IMG/VR virus record: IMGVR_UViG_3300028805_000039
Coordinates: 1-63,851 of that record
Length of the DNA stretch: 63,851 bases
Origin: a virus
Lineage: Duplodnaviria > Heunggongvirae > Uroviricota > Caudoviricetes
Direction: 5' to 3' (one strand)
How positions within the stretch are numbered: the first letter of the stretch is position 1; the number at the start of each line of letters is the position of its first letter. A program made the position numbers and the translations under genes. The notes under the pieces are model-generated. The model ran no database searches, had not been told where the DNA came from, and worked only from the letters and a program-made list of their open reading frames with translations. Of this stretch, positions 5,701 to 58,915 are shown piece after piece.

Positions 5701-5713
5701 GGAGTTGATAAAG

Positions 5714-6466: not shown

Positions 6467-6471
6467 AAATT

Positions 6472-6657: not shown

Positions 6658-6671
6658 GGAGGAACTATATA

Positions 6672-6941: not shown

Positions 6942-6945
6942 TACT

Positions 6946-7431: not shown

Positions 7432-7646
7432 TAATTACTACATTACTTTATATTTTTGCTACTATTGGAGTATTAAATACAATTACTGCTATTATTTTTT
7501 TAATCTATTTAATAGTAGATATAAATAACTATAAAGAATGGGAATATATAGAAGGGTATGGATTTAAAAATATTTGGAAAAATGAACGAAATGGAAATGA
7601 AGAGGAAATATCTGGAAGTAATCAAAATAATAGTAGCAAATGCTAA
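7428..7646 (+). CDS. small membrane protein
   Basis: 72 aa with a hydrophobic N-terminus. ATGA start overlaps the upstream stop. Confidence 0.45.
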   Translation: MIITTLLYIFATIGVLNTITAIIFLIYLIVDINNYKEWEYIEGYGFKNIWKNERNGNEEEISGSNQNNSSKC

Positions 7647-7805
7647 ACCAGAATCTTATACATTAAACTAGTTGCGGTGTGTTAATCAAATTTTAATGTA
7701 TGGTGCTAATACAACTCACCTTAAAGGATCTAATAATAGTTTTGGAATGGATGAAGGTTGGAAGGTAGATTATTTTCCAACTTCTTTTGTAAAGGATGAT
7801 AATGA

Positions 7806-8378: not shown

Positions 8379-8715
8379 AAAATTTTTTGATTTAATGCGG
8401 GAATCACGTTGTGGCCTTTGTGCTGAAAAAGATAAAGGTTGTAAAGGGTTTGATATTGCTGGTAAATGTAAAGATTTTAAATTAAAGCCTTTTTCAGATA
8501 GAATGAATATATACTATAAAGCTTGTTTTTGTTGTGAAAATTATTTTAATTGTGATGAAAAAGATAATGACAGTTTCAAATGCCATAATTATAAAAAATA
8601 TATCCCTAGATGTGATAAATGTGTTTTTACAAAAGGTATTTGTGGTTATCATGACACGCATGGAGAGTGTATTTCTTATAAACGTGATCCCCCTGATGGT
8701 GGATACTATGGATAA
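8365..8715 (+). CDS. Cys-rich hypothetical protein
   Basis: 116 aa with about 20 Cys residues. Confidence 0.5.
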   Translation: MMNFEKFFDLMRESRCGLCAEKDKGCKGFDIAGKCKDFKLKPFSDRMNIYYKACFCCENYFNCDEKDNDSFKCHNYKKYIPRCDKCVFTKGICGYHDTHGECISYKRDPPDGGYYG

Positions 8716-8878
8716 AAACGGACGCTGAGGCGAAAGTCTCGGCGTCTTCGTGCTATATCAAACGCCCCGTACTGCCAAAAAAATCGCGTTAGGAAATTTT
8801 TTCCAGAAATGTCTATCTCCATTAATTTTATTATTTTAACTTTCATATTTTTATGAAAGAAAGGAGAGAAAAGACGCA

Positions 8879-39926: not shown

Positions 39927-40005
39927 TTAAAGAAATAAAAAGAAAAAGCTAAATATAGTGATAAACGAAAATTTTATACTATATTTAGTGGAGGAATATA
40001 TAGAT

Positions 40006-42276
40006 ATGGTTATTAAACGTGATAACTCAAAAGTAACTTTTGATGGCAAAAAAATTATAGACGCTATTAATAAGGCTTTCATTGATGTAGATGGTTAGAT
40101 ATATGAAAATGATACAGCAACTGATATTGCCATTGAAATAGGTAAGAAATATATTAATACTGATGTTGATGTTGAAACAATACAAAATGAAGTAGAAGAT
40201 TATTTAATGCGTTCAGAGCGTAAAGATGTAGCTCGTGCTTATATTCGTTATAGATATAAAAAAGAAGTAGCTAGAAAAGTCAAAGATGATTTTATTGCTC
40301 CTATCAAAGATAAACTTGAAGCAGCTAATGTATAGAATCAAAATGCTAATGTCGATGAACATTCATTCGGTGGCCGTATGGGCGAAGCTGCAAGTTATAT
40401 GACTAAAAAATATGCTCTTGACTATCTTATTTCTGATATGGCAAAATATAATCATTTAAATAATAGAATTTATATTCATGATTTGGATCATTATGCTCTT
40501 GGTGACCATAATTGTTTAAGTGTACCATTTGATGAATTACTTGCTAAAGGATTTAATACTCGTCAATCTGATGTACGTCCTGCTGGATCTGTAAATACAG
40601 CTTGCCAATTAGTAGCTGTTATTTTCCAACTTCAATCATTACAATAGTTTGGCGGAGTAAGTGCTACACATATTGACTGGACAATGGTTCCATATATTCG
40701 TAAAAGTTTTACTAAACATATTGAAGATGGATTAGTTTATATAGAACATTTATCTTAGTATAAATAGAAACGTTTTACTAAATGGTTAAAAAATGATCCA
40801 GAACATCCAGATGGAACTATTCACTTTGATGATATTGATTTTTAGAAGAAGCATCCAGAAGTATTTGAATATGCTATGGATATGACTGAAAAAGAAGTTC
40901 ATCAAGCAGTTGAAGGTCTTTATCATAATTTAAATACATTACAAAGTCGTTCTGGAAATCAATTGCCATTTACTTCTATTAATTATGGTACTTGTACTTT
41001 ACCAGAAGGAAGAATGTTTACTCGTGCTTTACTAGAAGTCAGTATTGAGGGACTTGGAAAATTACATAAAACTTCTATTTTTCCATGCGGTATTTTTTAG
41101 TGCATGAATGGCGTTAATCGTAAATATGGTGATCCAAATTATGATTTATATATTTTAGCATTAGAAAGTACTTCTAAACGTCTTTATCCAAATTATGCTA
41201 ATGTAGATTGGTCTGGTAATGCTGGGTATGATAAAAATGATCCGACTACATATTTTAGTACTATGGGTTGCCGCACCGTTAATGGGGCCGATATTAATGC
41301 AGAACCAGGAGTTAATCCACAACGCAAAGATGGCCGTGGTAATATTTGCCCAGTAACTATTATTATGCCGACCTTAGCTATGGAAGCTAAACAAACTTGG
41401 GGAATATATAATTATTCAGCTGAAACTACAATAAAAGATACAGTAGATATTTTTATGAAATTACTTGATAAAGCAATTTATGATGCCAGAGATATGCTTT
41501 TAGAACGTTTTGAATGGATATGTTCACAAGATCCGTCTAGTGCTAAGTTTATGTATGAAAATAATACCATGAGTGGTTATCATCCAAGAGAAGGAATTAT
41601 CAGTGCCCTTAAACATGGTACATTAGTTATTGGGCAACTTGGTTTAGCTGAAACTCTCCAAATTCTTATTGGAAAAGACCATACAACACCAGAAGGAATG
41701 GAATTAGCTAAGCGTATTGAACAATTATTTAAAGATAGATGCGCTCAATTTAAGCAAGAAGAACATTTAAATTTTGGCGTATATTATACTCCTGCTGAAA
41801 ATCTTTGTTATACAGCTCTTAAAAAATTCCGTGAAAAATATGGGATTATTAAAAATGTTAGTGATAAGGATTTCTTTACAAATTCTATTCATGTGCCTGT
41901 TTGGAAAAATATGAGCCCATTCGACAAAATTGATATTGAAAGTCAATTAACTGGATATAGTAATGCTGGATGCATTACATATGTAGAATTAGATGCTTCT
42001 GTTGTTCATAATATTGAAGCATTAGAATAGATTGTTAATTATGCTATGGATCATGATATTCCTTATTTCGCTATTAATGTTCCATCTGATACTTGTTTAG
42101 ATTGTGGTTTTTAGGGCGAAATAAATGATAAGTGCCCTATGTGTGGAAGTACTCATATTCAGCAATTACGTCGTGTGACTGGTTATTTAACTGGTAATTA
42201 TAAAACTGCTTTCAATCTTGGCAAACAAGATGAAGTCCATCATCGAGTAAAACATGTTGGAGAAATGACACAATGA
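40006..42276 (+). CDS. nrdD: anaerobic ribonucleoside-triphosphate reductase NrdD (class III) with ATP-cone, 10 TAG codons
   Basis: GGAGG RBS. N-terminal ATP-cone (VIKRDNSKVTFDGKKI), glycyl-radical motif RVTGYL near the C-terminus, and Zn ribbon CLDCGF...CPMCG. One frame over 40378..42030 with TAG=Gln. Confidence 0.8.
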
Positions 42277-42752
42277 GATATGCTGGGATTATAAAAAATG
42301 ACGTCGCTGCTGGAAAAGGTGTTTGCGTCACATTCTTTGTCCAAGGATGTGACGCACATTGCCCTGGATGCCATAATCCAGAAACTTGGGATTTTGATGG
42401 TGGATATGAATTTACACAAAACACAATTAATTCAATTATTAATGCTTTAAATGCGAATGGAGTTTAGCGTAATTTGTGCATTATGGGTGGAGAACCATTA
42501 CATGAACGTAATTAGTTTTTAGTACAGCTTTTAATACAAGAAGTTAAAAAAGTTTATCCTGATATAAAAATATATTTATGGACAGGATATATCTATGAGG
42601 ATTTAATTGAAAAACACGAAAAAATATTGTAGAATATATTATCGGAAATAGATGTATTAATTGATGGACCTTTTATCCAAGAGCAAAGAGATATTACTCT
42701 TGCTATGAGAGGTTCTAGAAATCAACGAATTATAAATTTAAAGGAAAAATAA
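42273..42752 (+). CDS. nrdG: anaerobic RNR activating enzyme NrdG (radical SAM), three TAG codons
   Basis: Cys cluster GCDAHCPGCHNPETW and a GGEPL motif. ATGA overlap with the nrdD stop. Confidence 0.7.
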
Positions 42753-42753
42753 A

Positions 42754-43128
42754 ATGGAAGAAAAATCATACGGACAAAGAGATATTCCAGATATTATTAT
42801 TAATTTTTAGGGATATAGTTATAATTTAAAATCTTATTATTAGAAATTTACTTGTATCCACAAAACAAATAAACGTAGTAAGTGGATTATAAAAGTGGCC
42901 GTTTTACCTGAATATTTAAGAGAATCTCTTTTTGAAAGATATGTAGATGTAACAATTAAAGAGATCCATAGGATGGTAGAGACTAATGAAGATATTGAAT
43001 ATACCTATAATTTATATAAACCTAAAATTAAAATAATAGAATATCAAGATTGCACTATTGATGAACCAGTATCTTATAAAATTGTTATTACTGGTCGTAT
43101 TTTAGAAAAAAAGGAGATACAAATATGA
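42754..43128 (+). CDS. hypothetical protein (two TAG codons)
   Basis: 124 aa; joins track ORF 42895-43128. Confidence 0.4.
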
Positions 43129-43466
43129 TTATTACACTTTGTGGAAGTACTAGATTTAAAAATGAGTATGAAGAAGTAGCAAAAAAATTAGCTCTTGACG
43201 GACATTGCGTATTAAGTGTTAATATGTATTCTCATGCAGATAATATTGAATTAACACAAGAACAAAAAATTTAGTTAGATAATGCTCATAAACAAAAAAT
43301 TAGTATTAGTGATGCTATTTTTGTTATTAATAAAGATGGTTATATTGGAGAAAGTACTTTTAGTGAAATTGATTGGGCTCAACGTATGAAAAAAGAGATT
43401 TATTTTCTTGAAGATATCAATCAAAAAGATGATGAAAATAAAACAGAAAAAGCTGAGGGTAACTAA
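43125..43466 (+). CDS. nucleoside 2-deoxyribosyltransferase-like protein (degenerate), one TAG
   Basis: MIITLCGSTRF...ISDAIFVINKDGYIGESTFSEIDWA resembles the NDT/Rcl Rossmann-like fold. Confidence 0.4.
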
Positions 43467-43469
43467 TTT

Positions 43470-43985
43470 ATGAATATATATTTAGCTGGACCAATTTTTT
43501 TCTATGGTGATTATTTAAGAAATATTGAATGGGCTAATAAAATTAGATAGGCATTTCCTGATGTCTATCTGTATAGTCCAGTAGAAAATACTGATATAAA
43601 TGGTGTAGAGGGCAAAAAAAAGTTTGCCGGCTCACAAGAAATTGCTAATGGAGATAATAGTCGTCTTGATATGACTGATGTATTGATTGCTTGTATTGAT
43701 GGTGATGTACTTCCTTCTGGCACTTGCGCTGAAATTGGTAAATTTCATGAAAAGGTTATGCGTGGCGATAATAAATATATTATTGGTATTTGCACTGATA
43801 CTCGTTAGTGCTATAATACTCATAGTGCTGAAAAAGATATGGGTGGAGCTGCTAGCTTGGGTGAGTAGCAATATAGCTATCAAAATCTTTATGTGACAGG
43901 TTTAATTAAACAAGCTGGAACATTAGTGTATAATATTGATGAAGTTATTGAAATTTTAAAAGAAATTCATAATAGATTTAATTAA
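43470..43985 (+). CDS. nucleoside 2-deoxyribosyltransferase family protein (four TAG codons)
   Basis: Hallmark N-terminus MNIYLAGPIFF and a downstream acidic catalytic region. Confidence 0.6.
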
Positions 43986-43989
43986 AAAG

Positions 43990-44020
43990 ATAGAGTAAGA
44001 ATATAATTCTTACTCTATTT
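43990..44020 (+). terminator. rho-independent terminator (AGAGTAAGAAT...ATTCTTACTCT + T-run) overlapping the next -35
   Basis: Perfect hairpin followed by ATTTGACTTTTTT. Confidence 0.65.
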
Positions 44021-44038
44021 GACTTTTTTAAAAAAATA
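44010..44038 (+). promoter_or_regulatory. sigma70-like promoter TTGACT-N17(A7)-TAAACT
   Basis: Same architecture as the other promoters, with a weaker -10. Confidence 0.45.
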
Positions 44039-44079
44039 TGATAAACTTAATGTAAATATGAGTTAAAGGAGTATTTTTT

Positions 44080-44271
44080 ATGTATAATATATTATATTAT
44101 GATTTAGAGTATTTTGATACTGATGAAGTAAAAGAAATAATAACTTTATTAAAAGAATAGTTACCAGAAACTATATCAAAAAAATTAATTGCTCTTCCAA
44201 AGGGAACAAAGCTAACAAACTATTATGAAGAACAAGATTTAGAATATTTAAAGCAAGGAGCACATTGGTGA
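44080..44271 (+). CDS. small hypothetical protein (one TAG)
   Basis: 63 aa; its TGA overlaps the permease ATG. Confidence 0.4.
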
Positions 44272-44272
44272 T

Positions 44273-45511
44273 ATGATTTATAATATTAATGATAAACTTC
44301 CATTTAATAAATTAATAATGTTCGCAATTTAGTTGGTCTTATCTGTCTTCGTAGCAACAGTTCTTATTGCGAATATTTGCGGTGTTGCCGTATCAGGCGC
44401 ATTAGTTGGTGCTGGTCTTTCAACTATTATTTATTTAATAATTACAAGATTTAAATCGCCAATGTTTGTATCAAGTTCAGGCGCTTTTGTCGCTCCAGTA
44501 ATGGCAGCTCTGGCGGCTGGCGGATATACAGCAGTAGCAATTGGTGGTTTAGTAACTTGTATTATTTATTCTATTTTTGGAATTATATTTACTAAAATTC
44601 CAGTAGAAAAGATTTACAAAGTATTTCCACCTGCATTAATTGGCGCAGTTACAGTTGTTATTGGAGTTAATCTTATGCCATTTATTCTTACATATGTTTA
44701 GGTAAATGGAGTTACAAATATGTGGGGTGTGAGTGCCGCATTGATTACTATGTTAGCGATTGCTCTTATTTCGCATTATGCTAAAGGTGTTTGGCAAATA
44801 CTTCCATTTTTACTTGGTACATTAATTGGTTATGTGTATGCAATTATTCTTACTATAACTGGTATATATAAAATTGTTGATTTTAGTGTTTTTACTAATT
44901 TAAAATTATTTAGCGTTCCAGACTTTGCATTTTTACATTGGACTTCCATAGATTGGACTGTAGTTCTTCCAGTGGTAATTATGTATATTGCTTTTACAAT
45001 TTCAGCAATGATGGAATGTTTAAGTGACCATGCAGCATTAGGAGGTATTATTGGTGTTGATTTATACAAAGAACCTGGGCTTGGAAGGCTCTTCATCGGT
45101 GAAGGATTTGCTAATATAGTCGGTACTTCAATTGGCGGACTAGGAATATGTTCTTACGGTGAAGGAGTAGCCTGTGTTGGATTTAGTAAAGTTGCCTCCA
45201 CGCTTGTCACCTGTACAGCTGCCATTATCCTTATCTTGCTTGGCTTCTTAGCCCCCATTCAAGCATTTATCGCTAGTATCCCAAGCTGTGTATTTGCCGG
45301 AGCCGCAATAATTCTTTATGGGTTTATTGCATGTTCAGGAATTAAAATGTTACAAAAAACTGATTTAAACATTCAAAAGAATTTAGTAATTGTTTCTACT
45401 GTATTATCTCTTGGTATTAGTGGATTGGTCGTTGGTGGAACTACTATAAGTTTAAGTGCTACAGGTCTTGCTTTAGTAGTTGGAATTATTTTAAATTTAA
45501 TTTTAAAATAA
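44273..45511 (+). CDS. nucleobase:cation symporter (NCS2 xanthine/uracil permease family), two TAG codons
   Basis: 412-aa polytopic membrane protein with NCS2-like motifs (SSSGAFVAPV..., GEGFANIVGTSIGG). The N-terminal third is AT-rich with TAGs; the C-terminal half is conspicuously GC-richer and TAG-free. Confidence 0.65.
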
Positions 45512-45534
45512 ATTTTTAAGAAAGGAGTTAAAAA

Positions 45535-48198
45535 ATGGCAACTAGAAATGATTATAATAATCCGGAATATAATTTAATATCTTTAAAGGCTGGGAATGTT
45601 ACTCATCCAAAGTATTCATCAATTGTCGCGGTAGTTAATAATGATGGTAGTATTACATTAAATTTTACTATTGAAGGTATAATTATGGAAGATAATACTA
45701 TTACTAGTGGAATGCATGATTATAATGATGGACCAGGTATTAATTTAGATATTCCTTTAGAGAAACCTCTTTATTTAATTCCAGGGCAATATAAATATTC
45801 AATTGATATTATATCTGATAATTTTGAAATTGTTCCTGGGACAACAATTCCAATAACATATGTATTAACTAATGATATTGATTCTCCTTCAGAATTGCCT
45901 TCTATTACAACAAGTAGCGCAACAACTGAAATTAATTATCCCAATCCTTCATCACAAATCACAGGATATATTGAACCTGGTGGTAGTAATGAAGATTACC
46001 ATTATCCAAATAGTGAGAAACTTAAAAAACCATATTATATTTATACGAAATTATCCTTAAAACTAGGTTCGGCTGGAACAGCATCTTACATAGCGATTAG
46101 CAATAATAAAAAATATGATGATACAGTTTTTTCTAATTTTACTTTTAAGCCCATCTTTAATTGTTTATCTTGTACAGGAGAAGATTTACCAATTGAAGCA
46201 TACGAAGATGTATCTGGCTCTTATACTTTGCCTCAATCTGATATTATTACTTAGAATGAATCATATATTACAACTCAAGAAATGGGAATAATGACAAATA
46301 AATTAGAATCATTTTTAGATAATAATTCTCCTGGTGGTTTTGTACAAACAAGTATTAATATTAGTTCAGATGATTTAAGTACAAGAATTAATACTATTTT
46401 ACAAAATAAGAATTTTTTATCAGTAAATTCTCGAATTAATTATTCTTAGATTGATAATGCTCCTGTTTTTGCTGATATTGCTTTAAGTGGTGAGTATAAA
46501 GATTTAAAACATAGCCCAGACTTAGCGTCTGTAGCAATAACTGGCAATTATAATGATTTAAATAATAAACCAATTATTTCTGGGAATAATGGAGGAAATA
46601 ATGGAGGAAATAATCAACGTCAAATATATTACAATGAATTAGTTGGCGCCCCTACTTTAGCTACCGTGGCAAAAACAGGCAGTTATAATGACTTAATAGA
46701 TAAACCTAATTCTTTCGCAACGGTTGCTTTTTCTGGAAATTTTAATGATTTAGACTTTGTTCCAAATTTTGTAGAACGAGAAAATTTAAGTAATGCGGCT
46801 TTTTCAGGTGATTACAATGATTTATTAAATGCTCCTGAAGGTGTTGATTCAGATGATATTATTCATCATTTTGATATTAGTAATACTGATTGCTAGCCTT
46901 TAAAATATTTGGCCAATAATTTAATAGATACTACTACTGTTTTATCATAGCAAAATAATGCTAATTATACTATTGAATTATTTTTAATAGATTTAATGAA
47001 TACTTATTTTGACACTCCAGAAATAGATCCTAATGATGAAACTGAAATAAATTTAAATCATTATCAATCATCAGTGGTAATAAAAGTAACTACATTTTTA
47101 GGAGATATGATATTAACTGGTATTCATTAGCAAGATTCATCTTTTGTATTTACGTTTACACCATTAGATATGAATACTTATCTTTTAACTACAAAAACTA
47201 ATGAGCATATTACTGGTAATGATGTATAGGCTGAAACAATTTTAAATGAATTAACTCCAAATTATTTTTACCCAGTATTAATTTTTGTCCCTGCGAAACA
47301 TGAATTATGGATCAAAAGAATGACCTTGATTTTATAGGAATAGTTAAAGACAGTTGCTGTTACTGGTTCTTATAATGATTTAATAGATACTCCTCAATTA
47401 AAAAAAGTTGCTACTACTGGAGCTTATATAGATTTAGAGGGAGTTCCAGCATTAAAAACAGTAGCTACTTCAGGTTCATATACAGATTTAATAAATCGTC
47501 CTACTTTAGCTGAAGTTGCTACTTCAGGTTCATATAATGACTTAATAAATCGTCCTACTTTAGCTGAAGTTGCTACTACAGGTTCATATAATAGTTTAGC
47601 AGATATTCCAACTTTATCAGCAGTTGCGTTATCTGGCTCATATAATAGTTTAGAAGATCGTCCCAATTTAGCTGATGTAGCTTTAACTGGCTCATATTTA
47701 AATTTAACTAATAGACCAGATTTTGCTACAGTTGCTTTTACTGGCTCTTACAATAATTTATTAGATAAACCTGTTATTGCTCAATCTAATGATATTATTA
47801 AAATTTTTAATGTTGGGAATTTTAGTTCTAATTTATTAAAAACTTTTTCACCAGGGGAAGTTAATACCACAGGAAGAATATCTAATGATGTAGATGCAAG
47901 TACTATTAACAATTGGTTAGAAGATATTATAAATGCTTATAAATACAATAATGTTTTCAATTTAAATATTATAAAAATAACAAATAATAAACAACAATTA
48001 ATTTTAACTTATATTGAAGAAAATAATGATATTTATATTTTTCATTTTACCCCTATTAGTGAAAATAATTTACAATAGTTAATTAATGATAATATACCTC
48101 TTACAGAAAATAATATTACTTTTTCAAATTATTTTGTTTATTTTATTTATGATAAAAGTCGAGATAAATTATTTATTTACAATAAAAATATAACTTAA
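45535..48198 (+). CDS. tail fiber protein with tandem (A/S)xTGSYNDLxxxP repeats, 888 aa, 10 TAG codons
   Basis: One continuous frame from ATG 45535 to TAA 48196-48198 when TAG=Gln. Two blocks of 15-residue repeats (xVAxTGSYNDLIxKPxL). Confidence 0.65.
47350..47790 (+). repeat. tandem 45-nt coding repeats (SYNDL fiber repeats), including a near-identical duplication at about 47491-47585
   Basis: The unit cgtcctactttagctgaagttgctacttcaggttcatataatgac... repeats with few substitutions. Confidence 0.6.
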
Positions 48199-48224
48199 AT
48201 TTTTAATTGAATGGAGTTTAATAA

Positions 48225-49364
48225 ATGTTCACTGAAATTGATTATAAACCAGAATATGCCTTATTAAGTAATGGAATTATTAATGTAACAGATGATTGTA
48301 ATTTATAGTGTAAATATTGTTTTGTAGAATAGCATCCTCATTATATGACATTAGATACAGCTAAAGCTATAGCTGATTTTCTGTATAAAAATGCTGAAAA
48401 GAAAAAAGAATTAGGAATAATGCCAAAAAATAAAAAATGTGATTATTATTTTTTTGGTGGAGAACCTATGTTATAGTATGAGCAAATTATAAAACCTATG
48501 ATTGAATATTGTGAAACTATTTATCCAAATCAATTTAAATATGGAATTACTACTAATGGCACTTTATTAACAAAAGAAGTTATAGATTTTTTTAAAAAGT
48601 ATAAATTTGGAGTTATGATTTCTATGGATGGGATTAAAGAGTCTCAGGATTTTACTCGTCCTTGTAGAGATAAAAAATTAAGTAGTTATGATTTATTAAT
48701 TAAAAATATCCCATATTTATTAGAGCAATTACCAAATACAGTTACTAGAGGAACAGTATATCGTGAAAGTGCTCAATATTTATTAGAAAATTATAAATTT
48801 GCTGAATCGTTAGGATTTAAAAATTGGGCATTCTTAGCAGATCATAGGCACCCTTGGACACAAGAGCAAATGAATATTTTAGAAGAACAAATTAATGAAA
48901 TTTATCGTTATAGATTAAATTAGTTGATTGAAGGTAAATTACCAATGCATTCTTGGCGACATTCTTTTTGGATGCGAAGTACTATCAATTTATTAGATCC
49001 TGAAAGCACAGCTTTTAATATTGAAGAAAATAATTCAATTTTACGATGTGGTTTAGGCACAACGCTAGGAGCTATAGGATATGATGGAGCTATTTATGGA
49101 TGCCAAGAGCAATGTTCAAAAGAAAATAAAAATATTTTTTATATTGGAAATATTTTTAATGGTGGAATTGATATAGAAAAACATAAAGCATTATTAAATT
49201 TATATTTGCAAGCATAGGATGGACCTAAAGATCATTATGAAAAATGTGTTACTTGTCCATTACGAAAAGCATGTGCAGTTAATACTTTAGTTTGTCCATC
49301 TAGCACTTTTGATTTATATAATAATTTTGAAACAATAGATGATTTTAATTGTTTTTTAAGATAG
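48225..49364 (+). CDS. radical SAM / SPASM-domain maturase (anSME / ranthipeptide-maturase-like), six TAG codons
   Basis: GGAG RBS. CNLQCKYCF (CxxxCxxC with TAG=Q) and C-terminal SPASM Cys clusters (CGLGTTLGAIGYDGAIYGC...CVTCPLRKAC). In-frame TAG at 49362-49364; if read through the frame ends at TAA 49470-49472. Confidence 0.7.
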
Positions 49365-49479
49365 ATATATTTTAAAAATTCTTTATTATATTTAAATATC
49401 TTTATGCAATGTAAACATTTTAAAATTATTGAAGATTTCTTAAAATCAGAAATAGAAGGAATAAGGGGGTAATGTTATA

Positions 49480-50223
49480 ATGAGTGATTCCGCATGCGTA
49501 ACTGCTCAAAATTTTTGCCAAACTTGTTAGACAGGAGCTGAGACTGTAGGATATACTTTAACAAAAGGATTGCCTGATACTTAGGATTATATTACTAGTG
49601 AATTAGGACCAGCTATTAGAGCAGCATTATAGAAATTACATGATTATGGAAAAAAAGGAAGCAGAGAGTGGCCTTCACAAAATGAAATTAATTCTATTCC
49701 AAATATAAATAAAAGTGCTGGACAAAAAATTACTGCTGAAGAATATAATAAAATATTAAAAATTATTTCTGTTACTCCAATTACTGTTAGTGAAACAACT
49801 TAGACTGTTCATGTGCCTGGAGAATTAGAATAGTATAGTTGTTATAATTTATGTCCAGATATTTTCTCAGCTTTACCAGATTGGACAGCAAATGTAGTAT
49901 TAACAGAGGAAATGCTTTGGGGTAAGGATTATACTTACACTACTAAAAAACAAAAAAAATCAGAACCTCAATATCAAGTAGATACAGGAGATGTAGTAAG
50001 TATTAATGTTATTAAACAATTCTTACGAGATTATCAAATAGATTATAATAGATGTAATGACTGTAATACTTCTAATAATTGTGCTCAATGTCATTGCGAT
50101 TGTCATCGTTCTTCATGTGATACTAGTAGTAGTAGTGGTTGTAGTGAATGTTGTATGTACGGAGGAAGTAATGCTGGAGCTGGATGCCATACTCATAGCA
50201 GTTGTAGCGATTATAGTTGGTAA
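49480..50223 (+). CDS. 248-aa protein with Cys/Ser/Thr/Gly-rich C-terminal core (candidate RiPP precursor-like substrate), five TAG codons
   Basis: The C-terminal 55 residues are CNDCNTSNNCAQCHCDCHRSSCDTSSSSGCSECCMYGGSNAGAGCHTHSSCSDYSW (13 Cys). Sits immediately downstream of the rSAM gene. Confidence 0.55.
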
Positions 50224-50230
50224 TTATATA

Positions 50231-50268
50231 AAAAATGGTAGATTATTTTTTAATCTACCATTTTTTTT
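50231..50268 (+). terminator. rho-independent terminator (TGGTAGATT...AATCTACCA + T8)
   Basis: Perfect hairpin after TAA 50221-50223. Confidence 0.7.
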
Positions 50269-50744
50269 ATATAATTTTTATAAGTATTATTTTTATTTAA
50301 ATTAATTAAAAATATTTTTTTAAAAATTATTATTTTATTTAAACTTTTTATTTTTATATTTATATTAAAAATATTCTAAAATATCTTTTTAATTTCATTA
50401 TTATCATATTTGTCCTAAGATAACAAAATTAATAATAATATATCTTTTTTAATATTTTTATGCTGCTTTTTATAATAACAATTAATAAAATGATAACTAT
50501 TATTATTTAAAAAAGTATTAAAATAATAATTAGGTTTTATACCATTTAATCCTTTAAAAAACAAAACTAAACAATCACTTTCTTTATTATAAAAGCTAAA
50601 TAAATCTGGTATATAATATAAATAATCAAAAATTAAATTATAAAATTCTATATTCTAATTAATTTGATCTTTATAATTAAAAAATAAATTTTTTAAATAA
50701 TTAAAATTATTATTAACTAAATATTGCTAAGTACTATAAATAAA

Positions 50745-52025
50745 ATCATATAAAAATATTAAACATTTTGTTTTTAAAGATTTATTATTATTTTTTATAA
50801 ACTAATAATGCATATGAGGAAAAATATTATAATTATCTAAAAATACATGAACGGCAAATAAATTATTACATTGTGAACTATTATAATAATAAAAATTTAA
50901 TTTTAAATTATTATTTAATTCAATATAATAATTTAATAAATCTTTATCAGTAATTATCTATTTATTTAAAAATATTTTTTGATTATAATTATCATATTTA
51001 ATAGTATTAAAAAACTACTATTCATTATAACATTCTCTTAAATTTAAATTACTAAAATGCTAATATTGATAATATAGCGGATCTGATAAATTCTTAAAAG
51101 GTATAGCAAGGTTTGTTTTTTTTGTTTGACTTAATATTCCCTAATAGATTTCAGTAAAACATCGTTCTAAAGCTATCTCAAATATAGGAAAAGAACCTAA
51201 AATTAATGAATAATTATAATTTTTCTAATCTATTAATAATAAACCAATAACAGGAATAGAATATAAATATGAATAGTCAAAAATTTTAAAATTATATCCT
51301 AATGTATATAATTTATTTCCTTTATCTTTTAATGTTTCTGGTAATTTTAATTTATCAAAATTTAATTCTGGAGTAGGTTGATTAATATTCTCATAAACTT
51401 TATTCCAAACCATATGCTCATAAACTTCTGAAATACCCTATACTAATGCTTCTTCTAAAGTATTCCCCGCAGCCATTCCATCACTACCAGTAACAGCCTA
51501 TACTATTTCTGGCATTAAATATTGTTTTTCATTATTATTACCTATTTTAATAAAAGGTACTCCAATAAATTTATTGAAAGCTAATTGATATACTTTTTCT
51601 AAATTATTATTATCATCATTCATTAAATCAAATTTATATTTAATCCTCGAAGATAGCTATGTTGCTTCATAAAATGTTAATTCTTTTTCATCGGGACAAA
51701 AATAATAACCATATTTTTTATACCGTTCTTTTTTTATATCTTGATAACTCATAGTAGCATACATTTCATTTCCAGCATTACAAAAACGTTCATATAATTC
51801 TGCATATGCCGAAGCTTTAGAAAATTGTTCTGTTATACCTTTTCCATTTGATGATAATAATAAAAAATCTTTATAATATAATTGCAAAGATATCCACCAA
51901 GTACCAATTTCAGTCTATGTATTATTTTTTTCTTCAATTCTTAAACCTTTATTATAAAAAAACTATTGAATTAATTTAATTGTATCTATAGGTTTTCTAT
52001 TTTTATATTTATCATTATAATTCAA
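50745..52025 (-). CDS. YcaO-domain protein (cyclodehydratase / thioamidation family), TTG start, about 20 TAG codons
   Basis: Minus-strand frame continuous from TTG 52025 (AGGTGG RBS 6 nt upstream) to TGA 50745-50747 when TAG=Gln. Contains both YcaO hallmark motifs, SNGKGITEQFSKASAYAELYERF and SDGMAAGNTLEEALVQGISEVYEHM. The C-terminal third is extremely AT-rich and low-complexity. Confidence 0.6.
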
Positions 52026-52047
52026 TTATAACCACCTACCTAAAAAT

Positions 52048-52076
52048 AGGATAACATATTTTTTTAAAATAGTCAA
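52048..52076 (-). promoter_or_regulatory. sigma70-like promoter (minus strand) TTGACT-N17(A7)-TATCCT upstream of the YcaO gene
   Basis: The reverse complement matches the window-wide promoter architecture. Confidence 0.45.
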
Positions 52077-52087
52077 ATAAAATAATA

Positions 52088-52130
52088 AAAAGCTCATATG
52101 ACGATAATTGTCATATGAGCTTTTTATTAT
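52088..52130. terminator. bidirectional terminator (AAAAAGCTCATATGAC...GTCATATGAGCTTTTT)
   Basis: Perfect 16-bp stem flanked by A-run and T-run at the end of the minus-strand tail module. Confidence 0.7.
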
Positions 52131-52294
52131 TTTATTTTAATCCAAATTCTATTATTAACTTCAATATTATCAGAACCCCAATTTTTATAATTTGGAATTT
52201 CACTAACAATACCAATAATACAATCAGGATACATACAAATTTCTTCTCTAGTCATAATATCAACTGTACCATTCGGAGCAGAACAAACTGCCAT
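52127..52294 (-). CDS. possible small Cys-containing protein at the end of the tail module
   Basis: ATG 52294 in the same frame as the upstream fiber gene, 24 codons after its TAA. Ends in TAA TAA. No clear RBS. Confidence 0.3.
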   Translation of the reverse strand: MAVCSAPNGTVDIMTREEICMYPDCIIGIVSEIPNYKNWGSDNIEVNNRIWIKIK

Positions 52295-52366
52295 ACCAGC
52301 GTGATAATTGTCTCGATCCTAATAAGGATATACTAATACTCGTCCTGCGACAGCCAATGGAGTCTA

Positions 52367-55252
52367 ATTATCTTCCGTATACCCCATAGAATGTCCAAAA
52401 GTATCAGATATAACTTGAGCTCCTGGCTATAAACGCTAAGAAGCACACTATAAAGATCCATTATCACAATCTATTACTACTCGACCAGGTTCTAAATCAA
52501 TTGTTTTTCTATATTCAGCATAATCATTATATACTGCATTAAAAACTTTATTTGCTCTTAAATTTTTACCAAAATAACCATTTCCAGCACATCTAAAAGT
52601 ACTAGTATTATCATCTTTTGGAATAAATGCGGTATGTGTGGTTCCAGTCTAAGATAAAATTAAACTTCCGGTTAATTCATTACTCCAAGAAGGAGTACTT
52701 CCTCCTCGCCAAAATTGTTCAGTTGTTCCATTAGAACGTGGAATATTTGCTGTAATATCAGCGCCTTGAATTTTTAAAGTTTCAAAATCACCATTAAAAG
52801 CAAAAATATTTAACCATTGCTAGCCAGGAGAACCTAAATTATATTTTTTAGTTTGACCTGGAAGTATATCTCCATCCATCTATAATTTTTCTATTATTAC
52901 ATCAGCAAATCTACAAGTGCTATTTAAATTTACTGGCCCATCAACAGTTAATTCTCCACCAACAGTTAATGCCCCATCAACAGTTAATGCCCCATCAATT
53001 TTAACATCTTTTTTCATTAATACGCCTTTACCAGCTATTAAACGTCCGTCTATAAATGTGTTTCCTTTAAGAGTTGCTTGATTGCGTAAAATAGTTTCGC
53101 CTGTGACATCTAAACCAGCTGTAGCGTATATATTTCTAGCTTTAAAATCTACGTAAGTATTATCGCTGGGAATATTACGAGCTTCAAGAACATTATCATT
53201 ATTCCTTAACCCAATAGAATTATCTCCATTAATTAAAGCTAATTGATAAGTACCAAAACGAACTGTATTATTATCATTAGAAATATTCCAAGTTCGTAAT
53301 AACTTATTTCCATTTCCACCATCATACCACAAACCCGCTGTATCAACAGGATTATAAGTATTAATAGATACTTCATTAGTATCTACTGGAAAACCTCTTA
53401 TGCCTAAATAAGTAGCTGAAACTATAGCTCCTCCACTAGCATAAATATTACCATTATTAGTTACAATATTTCCAGAAGCTAAAATATTACCAAGCATATT
53501 TATGCTACCACCTGTAGTAACATTTCCTTTTTTAGTTGCTTGAGTACGAATATAAATATCCTAATTTGAAATATGACCTTCGCCACCGCTAAAGCCTTTA
53601 ATAGGAACTTCATATATCATTTCATTAAGACTAATTCTAAAAGTTCCAGAAGCCTAATGATAATTTTCCTATGTTGTAATTAAATTAGTCTATGAATTGC
53701 GGACACTTTTTAATACAGCAGAATCAAAATTACCTACACTAAAATCTTCGTTATTTCCAAATTCTGTTTTATCCCATTTTATATTAGTGCCTAATTTTAC
53801 ATATTTATAACCATATAAAATTCTATCTCCGGCCTAATTAAGAATTTGTTCTTCTAAATTAGCAATGCGCTATTTCGTCCAACCAATTTGATCTTGTAAA
53901 CGAATAATTTGAGATTGAAAACTATCAGTTCCTTCAACTAATTTACTTTTTAAACGAATTAAATTCTAAGCAATTATATCAGTAATAGTAATTGCAATTT
54001 GCTCCATATTATCATGGAAAGAAGCTAACATTGCTGAATAATTTGGACGTGTCTAATTTCGCCAAATCCAAGTATCGTCATCTACTATTTCATTTAAAAT
54101 ATTTGCTATTCTTTCCAAACCACTTGAATTAAAATTAAATAATTCGCTTTGGCGAGTTAAACGAATTTGTTCAATTTGCTCTTCTGTTAAGGTCTACCCC
54201 TAAAAAGTGTTAATATATTCTGCCTATAAACTATCTAAAAAACTTAAATAATTATAACTTCTAATAAAATCCTAAAATTCTGTAATAAAATTACGTTGTT
54301 CTTCGGTAAAAACATAATTAGTAATTCCATTGTCATTTTCGAAGGCACTATTTTTAATACGCTCTAATTCCAGTAAAATATTAAGTTTTTTACTAGCATC
54401 TAATGTAGTATATCTAAAAGTAATATATTTAAAACTCTTCCCATCTGGTATATTAGTTTCTAATTTAATATCCTAATATTTTAAAGGAATATTTCTAATA
54501 TCTAAAATTGTACTAGTTTTTGTGACACTTTCTTCATTTATTACTAGAACAAAAACATCCTAATTATTAGATAAAGCTATACTAGCTTCAGTATCATTTA
54601 AAGGTGACGATTTATTAATATTCCCATTAATATCTTTTAAATAATAATTTATATCTTTTCTAAGAACAGTATTTTTATCAATTTTTTCATATCTTAAACT
54701 AATTTGTTCATTATAATCAATTAAGTCATCTAATTTATAATTTGGATTTAATAATTTTCCATCAAATTTTGCATTATAATATCTACTAAAAGGGAAATTT
54801 AACAAAGATAAACCAGCAACTAAATAAGCATTTTTACTTTTTAAAAAAGTATCCATTTTCTACTCTAGTTGAGCAATTTGTTCTTCTTTCTCTTTTTGTG
54901 CTTTTTTGTTTTCTTCAAAAGCTTTTTTATATTTTTCATAAGTATAAATTAATTCATTTAATTCAATCTATAACTATGTTAATTCTCTCTAGCGCTAATC
55001 AATTTCTTCTTTAACATTTTTTGCAAAGATAATATTACCTTTTAAAGTACGTTCATCACCATAAGTGATTTTTAAACAAGGAGTATAATCAGTATAATCA
55101 GGCCAAATTTTATCTTTATGGAGAATATCAATATCTTTTTCATCAACATAATCAATATCAATAATTGGATAATTTTTAATATGAGTTAAAAGATTTTGAA
55201 ATGCTTCTTTCTTTAGCACTATATTATCTTCATAACGCTTATCATATAACAT
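52367..55252 (-). CDS. tail fiber / tail spike-like protein, 961 aa, about 40 TAG codons
   Basis: Minus-strand frame continuous from ATG 55252 (AAAGGAG upstream; in-frame TGA just upstream at 55274-55276) through track ORFs 54995-55252, 54560-54856 and 52880-53497 to TAA 52367-52369. Has a coiled-coil segment and beta-repeats (DGALTVDGALTVGGELTVDG). Confidence 0.6.
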
Positions 55253-55383
55253 AAAAAAATCAAAACTCCTTTCTCACTAAATATAAAAATCTTTCTATAT
55301 TAGAATAAAAAAAGAATAAAAATAATTATTCATAATAGGCCAAAAAAATAAAGTGAGTAATAATAAAATTACTCACTTTATTT

Positions 55384-56073
55384 TTAAACATCTAACCAAT
55401 AAACATTAAATTTTTTGTTAAAATCATAAATTTCTTGAATTTTTGACCAAATTCCCACCCCAGTTATCTTCATTTTTGGCTATCCATTTTCATCAATAAC
55501 TGGATTCCCATAAGAATCTAAAATTGGTTCTAATTGTCCATCAGTTAAAATTTCATTTACGGTGAACTAATTATATTTATGGTTAGCACCATTTTTATTA
55601 GCCCATCCAACAGATACCTTTGATTTACAAACTAAAGTATTTAATTCATATAATACTTCACCAGATGCTCTATCAATTTTAAAAAATTTAAAAGAGAATT
55701 GAATTGAGCCTCCATACTTAGTGACAGGACTTTGAATATTCCAACCAAAAATAATCTTTCCAGGATAACTTAATAAATCATAAGCTGGAATAATATACAT
55801 ATACTCTTCATGTTTAGCATTTTTAAACTGAACGGCTCCAATACAGGTTGATAAATCAATATTTTTATAATATCTATCCATAATAAAAAATAATGATTCA
55901 GCCTAATGGTCAGCCTCCACTCCTAAAAAAGGTGGAGGCTCTATAACTCTTGTTTCTAAATCAACTTTATATACTGGTTCTTCCGCCGGTATTCTAATTA
56001 ATATGCTAGGAGGATTATATGAATTAGCCAATGACGCTAAATATTCTTTGTATTCTGCACTACCTGTAATCAT
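55384..56073 (-). CDS. tail/baseplate-associated hypothetical protein, 229 aa, four TAG codons
   Basis: ATG 56073 preceded by TAGGAGGG with an in-frame TAA upstream. Continuous to TAA 55384-55386 and contains track ORF 55567-55881. Confidence 0.55.
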
Positions 56074-56098
56074 ATTATTTCCCTCCTAAAATTATATA

Positions 56099-58915
56099 TT
56101 AGTGAGTAGTAATACCAAAAACATCAGTATAACTGATATGGCAAGTTCCATGATAAAAAGTAGTTACTTTAATACGGTAATATCCAGGGTCATTATTAAT
56201 TTCAAATGTTAGATTACCATTTGTATCCATAACAATTTCACGCAAATCTTCTTCTCCGTAAAACTCATAAGGAACTTGAGTACCAGGAACATGACCATCA
56301 CTATCAGGGATACGAGGAATTACAATATCATTAACAATATCGTATTCAACCTCTTCTACATAATATTTAGTAACAATATCTTCTACTTTGTATTTAGTAT
56401 TATCGATATTTGTATTATTAACGATATTAAAAGTATAACGAGGATGAATTCGATTAATTTCTAAATTCACTAAAACTTTCTATCCATCAACGACAGGTCG
56501 ATCACCATCAACTAAAACTTCTTGATAACCAGCTGTAGGACGATCTTCATCATCACGATCCCAAATAGCACCAGCTATAGTTAATTTTCTATTTTCTGGA
56601 GCAACAAATGAAGTCGTAATAGTTTGAGCCTATTCAGTATCAGAGATACTATATGTTCCATTTCGACGATTAATAATACGAGCTAAATAAGTTCCTTCTC
56701 CTTCTTCTGGAGTGAAAACAAATTTACCATCGACTGGTAAACGATTAAAGGTATAAGGACCTTTTTCAATGTCATCTTTAGTAATTTGAGCTACTTTTCC
56801 TTCAGAATCAGTTTTTATTAATTCAGCTGCAAAAGCTCCTTGGCTATCTTCAATATGCTCAGAAGGAATAGTAACTGTAGCAATTAAAGTTGGCATTTGA
56901 GTATCATCTAAATAAACAAATTCAGGACCATCATAATCTTCTTGTCTAATAATTGTCCCACCATCTGCATCAAACTCATATTCTGATCCAACTTCTAAAC
57001 TAACTTCTGGCTATACAGCAGGAGGGATTGTTAAAACTGAACTTTCTACAACAGCACTATTTCTAGCAGCACTAGTGAAAATATAAAGTTCTTTCCCTTG
57101 TCCAGCAGCAATTGAAGCTAATTCATTGCTAACAGGATTTAATTTATCAATATTACCATTTTCATCTTTCAAGTAATAATTTGTATTAACTTTTAAATTA
57201 CTTGTATCTAATACTTTTTCATAATGATCTCCAACACTGATTCTTGCTTGTGCAGCAACTTGATAATTGCCAGCTGCCAATGCACGATAAGAAGAGCCAC
57301 GAATAGCAAATCTAGGTTTATCACCATCGTTAGTTACAACAGAATTAATATTATCAGTGTTAGCTGATGGGTCAATTCCATCATAATAAATACTAAATTG
57401 AGTATCTTTATAGCCATCTTTTGTTAAAATAATTGTCCTTGGTACAACCTAAAGACTATTAGCTTTTGCCCAAAAGATTATATGCCCGGCTGGTAAACCA
57501 GCTGATGAAGCTTCAATAACATCATTAGCATCTAATGGATAACCATTCCAAGTAACTCCAACAATTGTTTCAAGACCTGTATCAATATCAAGAGCAACCC
57601 ATTTTGCTTCTCCCTGATCGGGATCGGTAGATGCAAAAGTATTTAATTCATCAAGGCTAACCATTTTAACGATATTGCCATGTACATCAACAATAATATT
57701 ATCTTGATTTTCTTGACTTTGTTCTGTTTTTTCTGTATCATTAAAATCTACTGTATTAGTTAATTTTGTTATTCTTAAAGGTAAATAAGAAATAGAATCA
57801 TCTTGTTTATATTCATCTAATTTTGCCTTAGCTTCAGCCCACGTTAATACATGTTCAGTATTAATTTGTCCAGATTCATCTTTAAAGTAATAATGTTCTC
57901 CATTATCTTCTGCCGGTAATTGGACTTCAATATAATCACTAGATAAATTAACTGTATTAAAGTCACGTCCCATTGCTACATTACTATTTAATGGACTTTC
58001 TGTCCATTTATAAGTTACGTCAGCAGTAGCTGGATTTACAATAGCATAAGCAGTTAATAAAGCTCCTTGTTCATATATATTACGTAAATCTTCTTCTGGC
58101 GCAAAATAAGCAACTTTTTCTAATCCCGTATAATTTCCATTTTCATCTTTATCGCCAGATTTCCAAACAGGAGTTCCAACAGGAGAAATAGTATTATCTT
58201 GATAGACACTATTTGTGAAACGATTTAAATAATTATCAATTTCATCATGAATAATAGAAGGATTAGTTAAAGTTAAAGTATCATTAATAACAACAGATGC
58301 TGTTAAAGTATTGAAACTATAATCAATAACATTACTATTAGTAGTATAAAAAGTAACAGAAAAAGTAAGGACCCCACGTCCTTTAGTCATATTTTTATCA
58401 ATAATAAAACCAAAAGTAACTTTTTCTGGATTTAAGTCTGCATTTGGCGCGAAGGCTGGAACAGCTTGTGGTTCATCAAATATAGGAGTTTTTGCCCCTA
58501 TAGGAGTAAAATTCCAGTTAATAGCAACATTAGTATTCAATAAATCCTAACTATCAAAATATCTGTCTATATTTAAAACAATCATTTCAGCATTATGATC
58601 GCCATAAACGCCAATGCCATTTTTCTTTACCCCAGCTGGAACAGAAATAGTACGAGTATTTGCGTCAATTTCAAAAATTTCTTCATCAGCAGGCATAAGA
58701 AGTAAATAGCCACCACGAATACCAGTAATGTTTCCTTCAGAATCCTAACGTTGATTAACTAATAAAGGAATAATATCAGAAGTAAGATTGTTAAAATAAT
58801 CTTCTAAAGAATGAATTCTTAAAGGATTACCTGCTGTTTCTAAAGCTTGATTTATTAATTCAAAAACTGGTGCATAATAAAGTCCAGAATTTTCAGCAGT
58901 TAATTTTGTAATCAT
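56099..58915 (-). CDS. large tail/baseplate structural protein, 938 aa, about 17 TAG codons
   Basis: Minus-strand frame continuous from ATG 58915 (in-frame TAA at 58976-58978 upstream) through track ORFs 57449-58540, 57011-57280, 56630-56896 and 56099-56470 to TAA 56099-56101. Shares a YYLKDxNGNIxK...ASIA motif with the 52367-55252 protein. Confidence 0.6.

Follow-up and report, generated by a model that had tools for sequence, protein, structure and literature searches.

A candidate phage-borne rSAM/YcaO protein-maturation cassette and its family of Cys-rich putative substrates

The chemistry of radical S-adenosylmethionine (rSAM) enzymes with SPASM domains and of YcaO enzymes is known from the RiPPs (peptides made by the ribosome and then modified after translation) of bacteria and archaea, and from a few cellular proteins. 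Here we describe a locus in which genes for both enzymes adjoin that of a Cys-rich protein, in the tailed-phage record IMGVR_UViG_3300028805_000039; the whole stretch of 63,851 nucleotides that was analysed is called the window. In the closest described rSAM systems, namely PapB/PapA (freyrasin), CteB/SCIFF (thermocellin), QhpD/QhpC and the CXXX-repeat system TIGR04114/TIGR04115 (reportedly Haft's, and uncharacterized), an enzyme with a CxxxCxxC motif and a seven-Cys SPASM region stands beside a Cys-rich target, as it does here. An N-terminal RRE (RiPP recognition element), which binds the leader, is typical of CteB, CcpM, QhpD and the SCIFF maturases. On the YcaO side, the enzymes of thiazole/oxazole-modified microcins (TOMMs), microcin B17 and cyanobactins (McbD, SagD, LynD, TruD) share with the enzyme of the window an ATP-dependent amide-activation domain and a Cys/Ser/Gly-rich target, and TOMM YcaOs carry a Pro-rich C-terminus. 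Escherichia coli YcaO (EcYcaO), the one characterized member of the long YcaO type, thioamidates the backbone of uL16 at Met82 with ATP, Mg and sulfide, and recognizes the tertiary structure of this folded protein (Rice et al., Biochemistry 2026, PMC13063428). TfuA is dispensable for thioamidation, since EcYcaO works without it (PMC13063428).

An initial annotation of the window had proposed a functional phage-encoded RiPP-like maturation module at this locus, and that part of its interpretation is supported. From gene content, enzyme families, conserved catalytic residues, synteny and family architecture we infer who modifies whom, by what chemistry, and the fate of the product. The cassette is best filed as phage-borne rSAM/YcaO protein maturation with a novel substrate family; its enzyme families are ordinary, while its setting, its substrate and the E. 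coli type of its YcaO are not. The interpretation that we favour, and consider probable, is a late-expressed protein-maturation cassette in which the Cys-rich protein is the substrate of both the rSAM enzyme, which would introduce cross-links, and YcaO, which would modify the backbone. The conserved N-terminal domain of this protein would be its recognition or scaffold part, and the hypervariable Cys/Gly/Ser-rich C-terminal tail its modified part. The translationally coupled, RRE-less rSAM enzyme would put intramolecular cross-links into the tail, probably Cys thioethers comparable to those of sactipeptides, ranthipeptides and QhpC. The separately transcribed YcaO would modify the backbone of this protein at an amide, in an ATP-dependent reaction; a thioamide would be likelier than an azoline, and the site would probably be a clade-specific CCMYGG...GCH block.

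The rSAM enzyme, termed rSAM-A (415 aa), matches the Pfam family PF04055 (Radical_SAM) with 53.6 bits (cutoff 29.5, E = 3.8e-14). As claimed initially, it has a CxxxCxxC motif (C25/C29/C32) followed by a SPASM region: the pattern Cx9-15Gx4C ... Cx2Cx5CxnC ... C of the auxiliary clusters is present, and its seven Cys (C275, C293, C341, C344, C350, C357 and C376) are kept in 9/9 orthologs. The best NCBIfam matches were the PapB, CcpM, QhpD, CXXX-repeat and SCIFF maturases, all below cutoff: 159.8 bits for NF047865, the PapB ranthipeptide maturase (cutoff 340, E = 9.6e-47), 112 for TIGR04115, the CXXX-repeat maturase (cutoff 350, E = 4.4e-32), and 110.3 for TIGR03974, the SCIFF maturase (cutoff 425, E = 1.1e-31). 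The profile search with TAG translated as Gln, which had been suggested as a check, thus gave PF04055 and the YcaO family PF02624 above cutoff, but neither the Pfam SPASM model (14.2 vs 21.5) nor the maturase equivalogs. Since every equivalog cutoff was missed, rSAM-A appears to belong to no known thioether family, although it resembles thioether-forming enzymes; its CxxxCxxC motif, seven-Cys SPASM pattern and top matches among Cys-peptide maturases probably indicate thioether formation. In the Protein Data Bank (PDB) it matched CteB (5wgg, 1e-17), with an alignment that begins at CteB residue 100. No N-terminal RRE was found in rSAM-A, whose motif lies from residue 25 and whose alignments enter the family models at 82-101. 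It differs from the described thioether systems in this, and in that its putative target is a protein of 170-330 aa with a folded domain, of no known precursor family, in a phage-encoded, TAG-recoded cassette among fibre genes that has no protease or exporter. A further likeness concerns PapB, which joins Cys to Asp or Glu (PMC9413430): in the tails of the phage proteins, many Cys have Asp, Asn or Glu as neighbours.

The Cys-rich protein has 247 aa, with 17 Cys overall, 12 in the last 57 residues and 11 in the last 55, instead of the 248 aa and 13 Cys in the last 55 residues of the initial annotation. A profile search of 1.84 billion cluster representatives returned 41 family proteins of 63-326 aa, including a few clear fragments; putative precursors across the family have 170-330 aa, and pairwise identity drops to roughly 20-35%. 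The N-terminal part of the family is conserved in three blocks, an N-terminal C..(A/K)Q.FC, then L..I.DYG..GTRNP and an invariant RCNxCNT; in the window protein, the N-domain motifs read MSDxxCxxAQNFCxxCQT and LQKLHDYGxxGxRxWPSQ. Four Cys (C6, C13, C192 and C195) are invariant. The tails after RCNxCNT are hypervariable in sequence, length (28-112 aa), Cys number (5-21) and spacing; they contain 18% Cys, 15% Gly and 12% Ser, and CxxC and CxxxC spacings dominate. Of the attributes of a precursor, the conserved leader and variable core are seen in the family alignment A2, and the adjoining maturase in the gene order. The proposal that the C-terminus is the likely substrate agrees with the conserved N-domain, the hypervariable Cys tail and the rSAM gene always directly upstream. 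The description as a precursor-like protein holds for the conserved 'leader' and the variable core, but not for the size, since its 247 aa and conserved folded domain set it apart from a short peptide.

Pfam, NCBIfam and PHROGs contained no family for this protein or for 34 family members, with the exception of one fusion: member P0028 has a Peptidase_S74 tail-fibre chaperone domain after its Cys-rich part (35.9 bits vs cutoff 22). The AlphaFold2 (AF2) model of the window protein is helical, with a predicted confidence (pLDDT) of 72-89 at residues 10-100 and 170-190 and below 50 in the tail; a Foldseek comparison of this model, itself only moderate, with the PDB and BFVD gave nothing under E = 1. 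We thus regard the Cys-rich proteins as a new, uncatalogued family. Close relatives were absent from 185,579 bacterial and archaeal species-representative genomes, and therefore no prophage or host clue was obtained. A CCMYGG...GCH block is invariant and occurs in every YcaO-linked member, and it is absent from P0028, P0031, P0168 and Phass-1, which are YcaO-less. In P0003 (contig of NCBI GCA_016648615.1), CCMYGGSNxxxGCH is found twice, at residues ~135-150 in a middle insert and at ~225-240 in the tail, so that in this protein it seems to behave as a portable unit.

The YcaO, encoded on the minus strand, has both hallmark motifs, and the TTG start at 52025 with AGGTGG upstream, as described initially, agrees with the N-termini of its orthologs. 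Its length had been given as 427 aa; it is 591 aa, as there is no TAG or other stop at codon 428 and the orthologs, of 587-604 aa, align over 100% of their length. PF02624 is matched with 108.4 bits (cutoff 25.7, E = 5.9e-31) and TIGR00702 with 79.4 (cutoff 75.65). The ATP/Mg residues S72, E76, E79, E200, E203, E287, R288 and E292 are invariant in 43 homologs and match the E. coli motifs. The best sequence match was EcYcaO (4q84, 3.3e-18), with ~29% identity over the N-domain. For structural comparison we used the ortholog P0045 (68% identical to the window YcaO), whose model (pLDDT 85.6) includes a confidently modelled helical domain in the C-terminal third. This model matches 4q84, 4q85 and 4q86 over the full length (TM 0.63-0.65, ~625 alignment columns), whereas TOMM heterocyclases (TM ~0.44) and methanogen YcaOs match it over the N-domain only. 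Sequence and full-length fold thus characterize the window YcaO as a predicted E. coli-type long YcaO, which shares with EcYcaO the C-terminal helical domain, the ATP/Mg residues and the stand-alone organization, with neither E1-like nor TfuA partner.

The azole chemistry of TOMM or microcin B17 type, put forward in the initial annotation, had to be rejected. The TOMM cyclodehydratase model TIGR03604 scored 44.6 (cutoff 219.25), the protein ends in ...YIKKMVD, a C-terminus that is not Pro-rich, and Pfam detected no ThiF/E1-like (Ocin-ThiF) partner and no nitroreductase/FMN dehydrogenase in the 10 neighbour genes (39958-58915). The model of McrA-type thioamide YcaOs, TIGR03266, reached 38.7 (cutoff 365), and there was no TfuA among the neighbours. 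Because the enzyme is not of TOMM type and the characterized long YcaO thioamidates a folded protein, an azole is an unlikely product, and an azoline appears no more likely than a thioamide. PHROGs had no family for the YcaO, and the sole match of a tblastn search against phage records was a ycaO gene inside an E. coli prophage record.

The trio of genes recurs in related TAG-recoded phage contigs (L002, L003, L005, L013 and the P0003 contig). Proteins homologous to the Cys-rich one, at 35-48% identity, are encoded in L002, L003/L004, L005, L013, L014 and a contig of an NCBI metagenome-assembled genome (MAG), each after an rSAM ortholog. In every recovered locus of the family (the window, L002-L009, L013-L016 and Phass-1), an rSAM-A ortholog is located directly 5' of the family member on the same strand; the member of phage phAss-1 was found with a profile E of 3.9e-12. 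The recovered loci are all TAG-recoded. The YcaO is limited to the subclade of the window, where its gene (531-604 aa) adjoins the Cys-rich gene in 6/6 loci with enough flank. In L005, ycaO shares the strand of the Cys-rich gene, the end of which it overlaps, while the two are convergent in the other loci; the adjacency has thus outlived a rearrangement, since ycaO of L005 is inverted yet adjoining. The arrangement of the trio is far beyond chance. Regarded as a unit, the trio claimed in the initial annotation is conserved in the subclade, but the core pairing of the family would be rSAM and Cys-rich protein, with YcaO as a clade-specific accessory.

Other enzymes accompany this core elsewhere. 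Downstream of their Cys-rich gene, L015/L016 have a gene for a 297-aa 'protein X' and a second rSAM gene of 318 aa (rSAM-B); in L006, rSAM-B is 5' of the cassette, phAss-1 has a second rSAM, and in L002 and L013 a protein X homolog is encoded between ycaO and the fibre gene. Protein X (207-316 aa) has a motif like CACHKECQGTAHWLA, belongs to no known family and is absent from the window. It co-occurs both with the Cys-rich cassette and with a second YcaO operon, in which the nearest YcaO relatives outside the subclade (36-47% identity) are found, again on TAG-recoded contigs and with rSAM-B and protein X adjoining. No member of the Cys-rich family is encoded in this operon, which in L012 has a Gp10_C baseplate-like gene as its neighbour. 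Its order is a Cys-containing protein of 260-357 aa, an FkbM methyltransferase, a long YcaO, an rSAM of 318-325 aa and a 16-Cys protein of 346-357 aa, followed further 3' by three small genes, a 485-aa twitch rSAM and a 424-aa SPASM rSAM. These arrangements suggest a cassette logic of one core enzyme with interchangeable tailoring enzymes, and in TAG-recoded phages long YcaOs seem to partner rSAMs repeatedly.

Regarding the fate of the product, we lean, if weakly, towards a cross-linked protein of the virion or associated with the fibre rather than a diffusible toxin, because of the position among fibre genes, the conserved-N/variable-C layout, the S74 fusion, the late TAG usage and the lack of a protease or exporter. 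The context is that of late, structural genes: TAG-rich genes, fibre genes on both flanks and an S74-fused family member. Phage fibre and receptor-binding proteins likewise combine a conserved N-domain with a variable C-terminus, and most loci share the fibre-gene neighbourhood. They differ in that the Cys-rich N-domain is predicted to be a small helical bundle, not a fibre, and PHROG, Pfam and Foldseek comparisons revealed neither homology nor fold similarity of the family to fibre proteins. We know of no receptor-binding protein that needs an rSAM or a YcaO. It is nevertheless tempting to speculate, if only tentatively, that the Cys-rich protein is a virion adhesin or tip on the SYNDL-repeat fibres encoded upstream, with its tail knotted by rSAM thioethers and, in this clade, a YcaO thioamide. 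This would be the first enzymatically cross-linked receptor-binding module of a phage, in which thioethers would act as redox-insensitive, protease-resistant stand-ins for disulfides in the anoxic gut and diversify like RiPP cores. More broadly, a product located in the virion would mean that phages in anaerobic habitats build or diversify the structures with which they recognize hosts by means of radical chemistry and ATP-dependent backbone chemistry, and a released product would be a phage-delivered RiPP.

Such a classical diffusible RiPP or bacteriocin is the strongest of the competing explanations, although we consider it unlikely. The N-region of ~190 aa would in that case be a long leader of the NHLP/Nif11, proteusin-like kind, and the core would be cleaved, freed at lysis and active on competitors or the host. 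A conserved 'leader' and a hypervariable Cys 'core' beside rSAM/SPASM and YcaO genes is indeed the canonical RiPP layout, the nearest bacterial families of rSAM-A (PapB, CcpM, CXXX-repeat, SCIFF) are maturases of Cys peptides, and the self-cleaving S74 domain of P0028 might be a release device. However, no leader peptidase, C39/ABC exporter or immunity gene was detected by Pfam among the 10 neighbours or seen in the related loci, and the sole transporter among these neighbours is a Xan_ur_permease beside nucleotide-metabolism genes. The short precursor of a RiPP cluster is also missing, the 'leader' being a conserved folded domain far longer than usual, and neither the rSAM without an RRE nor the position among fibre genes with late-gene TAG codons is expected of a diffusible RiPP.

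It is rather improbable, in our estimate, that YcaO works independently of the rSAM/Cys-rich pair, on host uL16, on the 1041-aa fibre-like protein encoded 5' of ycaO or on another phage protein. The fold and best sequence match would fit this, as they are those of EcYcaO, whose substrate is uL16, and so would the monocistronic gene with its own promoter-like site and terminators on both flanks. The nearest relatives from outside the clade are in operons without a Cys-rich family member, long YcaOs recur in other large phage contigs, and most loci of the Cys-rich family have no YcaO. Against this, ycaO and the Cys-rich gene are neighbours in each of the six subclade loci, even after an inversion that left them overlapping on one strand. 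With respect to uL16 itself, strongly acidic pI has been identified as a predictor of uL16 specificity, and RiPP-like contexts have been noted for those members of the EcYcaO group that are not acidic (PMC13063428). The pI values of four phage YcaOs are 8.8, 8.8, 9.1 and 5.7 (8.8 in the window and 5.7 in L005), basic or neutral, in contrast to 4.4 for EcYcaO, and the E. coli-type uL16 thioamidase model NF040716 gave 101.4 bits for the window YcaO, far from the cutoff of 700. The substrate is thus probably not uL16, because the gene of the phage enzyme, unlike that of EcYcaO, has those of a dedicated Cys-rich protein and of an rSAM as neighbours; as a leading idea, uL16 specificity was rejected on pI and synteny. 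A third explanation is highly improbable, namely that the Cys-rich protein binds Zn or Fe-S in a structural or redox role and that rSAM-A acts elsewhere like anSME, which it also resembles. The four invariant Cys and the many CxxC motifs would suit metal sites, but tail length, Cys number and spacing are too variable for a conserved cluster, and a relationship of enzyme and substrate is indicated by the strict pairing, with translational coupling, to an rSAM that resembles Cys-peptide maturases.

Several observations weigh against the protein-maturation cassette that we prefer. All enzyme-substrate pairings are derived from gene neighbourhood. The NCBIfam equivalog cutoffs were missed throughout, and therefore the type of reaction cannot be transferred to rSAM-A with confidence. 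YcaO is always encoded between the Cys-rich gene and a fibre gene of 1020-1041 aa, with its own promoter-like site and terminators, so another substrate would be conceivable. The link between the CCMYGG block and YcaO is phylogenetically confounded, because it comes from a single clade. The Cys-rich proteins have a pI of ~5, and the argument of charge complementarity with the YcaOs is weakened by the pI of 5.7 in L005. With a mean pLDDT of 62, the N-domain was modelled by AF2 with moderate confidence only, and no fold match was obtained for it; C6, C13, C192 and C195 could equally form a zinc site. Finally, the rSAM/Cys-rich pair of Phass-1 is found outside a tail module, beside topoisomerase-like genes.

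All three genes need TAG to be read through, as was claimed from the start: there are 6 in-frame TAGs in the rSAM gene, 5 in the Cys-rich gene and 16 in ycaO, and annotation with the standard code would miss the module. Counted over open reading frames (ORFs) of 100 aa or more, stop-to-stop coverage of the window is 43 kb in the standard code and 68 kb with TAG as a sense codon, and the maximal ORF length grows from 793 aa to 1538 aa; recoding of TGA gives a far smaller gain. TAG codon 196 of ycaO stands where the ATP-binding motif has a Gln in E. coli YcaO (RVQGLSEVFER) and, without exception, in 42 homologs, and TAG codon 28 of the rSAM gene is aligned with an ordinarily encoded Gln of the orthologs (CNLQC); both positions are consistent with TAG = Gln. 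When ortholog residues opposite all TAG columns were tallied, Gln and Lys each accounted for ~15%, which supports a sense reading and alone does not identify Gln; the invariant YcaO Gln is the stronger evidence. Long ORFs between 1 and 9000 have nearly no in-frame TAG, and most genes past 9165 (9165-63813) have 1-27. Recoding of TAG in phages is reported chiefly for late genes, and the distribution along the window fits this bias. The window, with a GC content of 29%, contains no tRNA gene and hence no suppressor tRNA. Stop-codon-recoded phages can in this way conceal entire biosynthetic modules from standard annotation.

The exact Cys-rich protein was found on a 152-kb metagenomic contig, and a standard-code fragment of it on a 240-kb contig. 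When the DNA of 44000-56000 was compared at near-identity with 50,697 phage records, no match was obtained. The closest phage match of rSAM-A was phAss-1, a human-gut phage of the 'Caudoviricetes code 15 clade' (PMC10607447), and the rSAM and Cys-rich genes go unmentioned in the phAss-1 paper (PMC10607447). Anaerobic ribonucleotide reductase genes (NrdD and NrdG), a nucleoside deoxyribosyltransferase and a nucleobase permease are encoded nearby, and NrdD, NrdG and the neighbouring nucleotide-metabolism genes point to an anaerobic host.

The coordinates of all features are collected in Table 1. The rSAM stop and the start codon of the Cys-rich gene are separated by 7 nt, and in relatives the two genes abut or overlap; because the ribosome-binding site (RBS) lies inside the rSAM end and the genes abut, translational coupling is suggested. 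The hairpin 5' of ycaO, together with that between the convergent genes, would isolate ycaO as a separate transcription unit. Its promoter had been called family-type, but the site is a consensus match only: a generic sigma-70 promoter scan of this AT-rich window did not rise above shuffled controls, so promoter claims are tentative. TTGACT(TT)-N-TAT(A/C)(A/C)T sites are nevertheless present 30-45 nt 5' of gene starts at 9103, 14824 and 22670 (plus strand) as well as at 52076 (minus strand), and the four may be a phage promoter family.

The vicinity of tail-fibre genes, another initial claim, was substantiated by the SYNDL-type protein directly 5' of the rSAM gene: in its repeat region it shares 57% identity with a protein of Ralstonia phage phiRSL1 that is annotated as tail fibre (E = 7e-42), and it additionally matches cyanophage baseplate/tail-pin proteins. 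Orthologs of it are encoded 5' of the cassette in L003, L004, L005, L013 and L014. On the other side, orthologs of the 1041-aa protein flank the cassette in L002 and L005, and it is related (E = 4e-44) to a protein of >1878 aa encoded beside a Gp10_C (T4 gp10-like) baseplate-like gene in L012, a 247-kb phage contig. It has no annotated or solved relatives, and for this reason we infer its fibre identity only.

Table 1. Positions of the features described, in the window and in other sequences
Feature	Sequence	Position	Strand	Remark
rSAM/SPASM enzyme rSAM-A	window	48225..49472	+	Radical_SAM match
AAGGGGG RBS, rSAM TAA, Cys-rich ATG	window	49463..49482	+	RBS within rSAM 3' end; read from sequence
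Cys-rich gene, whole	window	49480..50223	+	
Cys-rich N-terminal domain, aa 1-190	window	49480..50049	+	family alignments A1, A2; AF2 helical
Cys-rich tail, aa 191-247, and stop	window	50050..50223	+	RCNDCNTSNNCAQCHCDCH...CCMYGGSNAGAGCH...; putative modification target
Bidirectional terminator hairpin	window	50230..50266	.	separates the convergent genes of Cys-rich protein and YcaO; folding energy by strand -17.8 and -17.4 kcal/mol, z ~ -8, T-runs on both sides
E. coli-type long YcaO (predicted)	window	50250..52025	-	ATP-binding domain and helical C-terminal domain
Promoter-like TTGACT-N17-TATCCT with upstream TG, then AGGTGG RBS	window	52032..52076	-	before ycaO TTG start; consensus match only
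Terminator hairpin, 20-bp stem	window	52083..52129	.	after the 1041-aa fibre-like gene; -30.9 kcal/mol, z = -12
Fibre protein, 887 aa	window	45535..48198	+	13 SYNDL-type repeats; directly 5' of rSAM gene
Fibre-like protein, 1041 aa	window	52127..55252	-	5' of ycaO; orthologs beside cassette
NrdD	window	39958-42276		
NrdG	window	42273-42752		
Nucleoside 2-deoxyribosyltransferase	window	43470-43985		
Nucleobase permease, 412 aa	window	44273-45511	+	Pfam Xan_ur_permease, E = 7e-50
Protein X	L002	4117-4740		
Protein X	L013	10892-11515		
Protein X	L015	7424-8317		
Protein X	L011	11309-13075		
Protein X	L012	16164-17797		
Second YcaO operon	L010	1-6498		
Second YcaO operon	L011	1400-11030		
Second YcaO operon	L012	6390-15790		
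YcaO homolog locus	L020 (JGI Ga0307249_10001222)	3728-8791		188-kb contig
CxxxC ORFs	L017 (phiEaH2, JX316028.1)	72-455, ~470-865, 898-1116		
CxxxC ORFs	L018 (SPFM16, LR535915.1)	1121-1513, 1524-1925		

In the full-text literature searched there was no report of a phage-encoded rSAM/YcaO system acting on a phage protein. The locus is thus of interest as a candidate non-ribosomal substrate for the E. coli-type long YcaOs, one year after the first substrate of that enzyme. For the rSAM half, a comparison is offered by cultured jumbo phages: Erwinia phages phiEaH2, Asesino, Stratton and Caitlin and Salmonella phages SPFM16 and SEGD1 (phrog_1802) encode a homologous rSAM/SPASM enzyme with ~23-25% identity, for which PapB and CXXX-repeat are again the top families and which has a second rSAM adjoining. 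In phiEaH2 and SPFM16, two or three short ORFs (72-133 aa) lie just 5' of the rSAM pair, between virion-structural and tail-assembly genes; they share a conserved N-region and end in tails with extreme CxxxC repetition. These ORFs, with an MAI(S/N)LK.. N-terminus and Cys/Ser/Gly tails, precede a 295-aa gene and the two rSAM genes. In GenBank they appear to be unannotated or replaced by calls in other frames, they score below threshold with the CXXX-repeat target models, and the jumbo-phage comparative-genomics paper and the other full-text literature searched do not discuss them. The modules differ from that of the window by the standard code, the absence of YcaO and a distinct, shorter Cys-rich family in tandem copies. 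They provide an experimental handle on the rSAM half and, if the adhesin idea were true, would join the cassette in a general, overlooked class of phage protein modification.

Two further observations concern the surroundings. The permease gene directly follows the NrdD, NrdG and deoxyribosyltransferase genes and recurs in L005 and L013. Among the auxiliary genes of phages, one for a membrane transporter is unusual. As a RiPP exporter it was rejected, since it groups with these nucleotide-metabolism genes. Another YcaO homolog (596 aa, 36% identity) is encoded in L020, in surroundings that resemble those of a phage, with PDDEXK_5, DUF2828, RNase_T and RNA ligase genes as neighbours, a ThiF/E1-like gene 2.5 kb 5' and an rSAM gene 7 kb 3'; this sequence, filed as an NCBI 'Firmicutes bacterium' MAG contig, may be a large phage.

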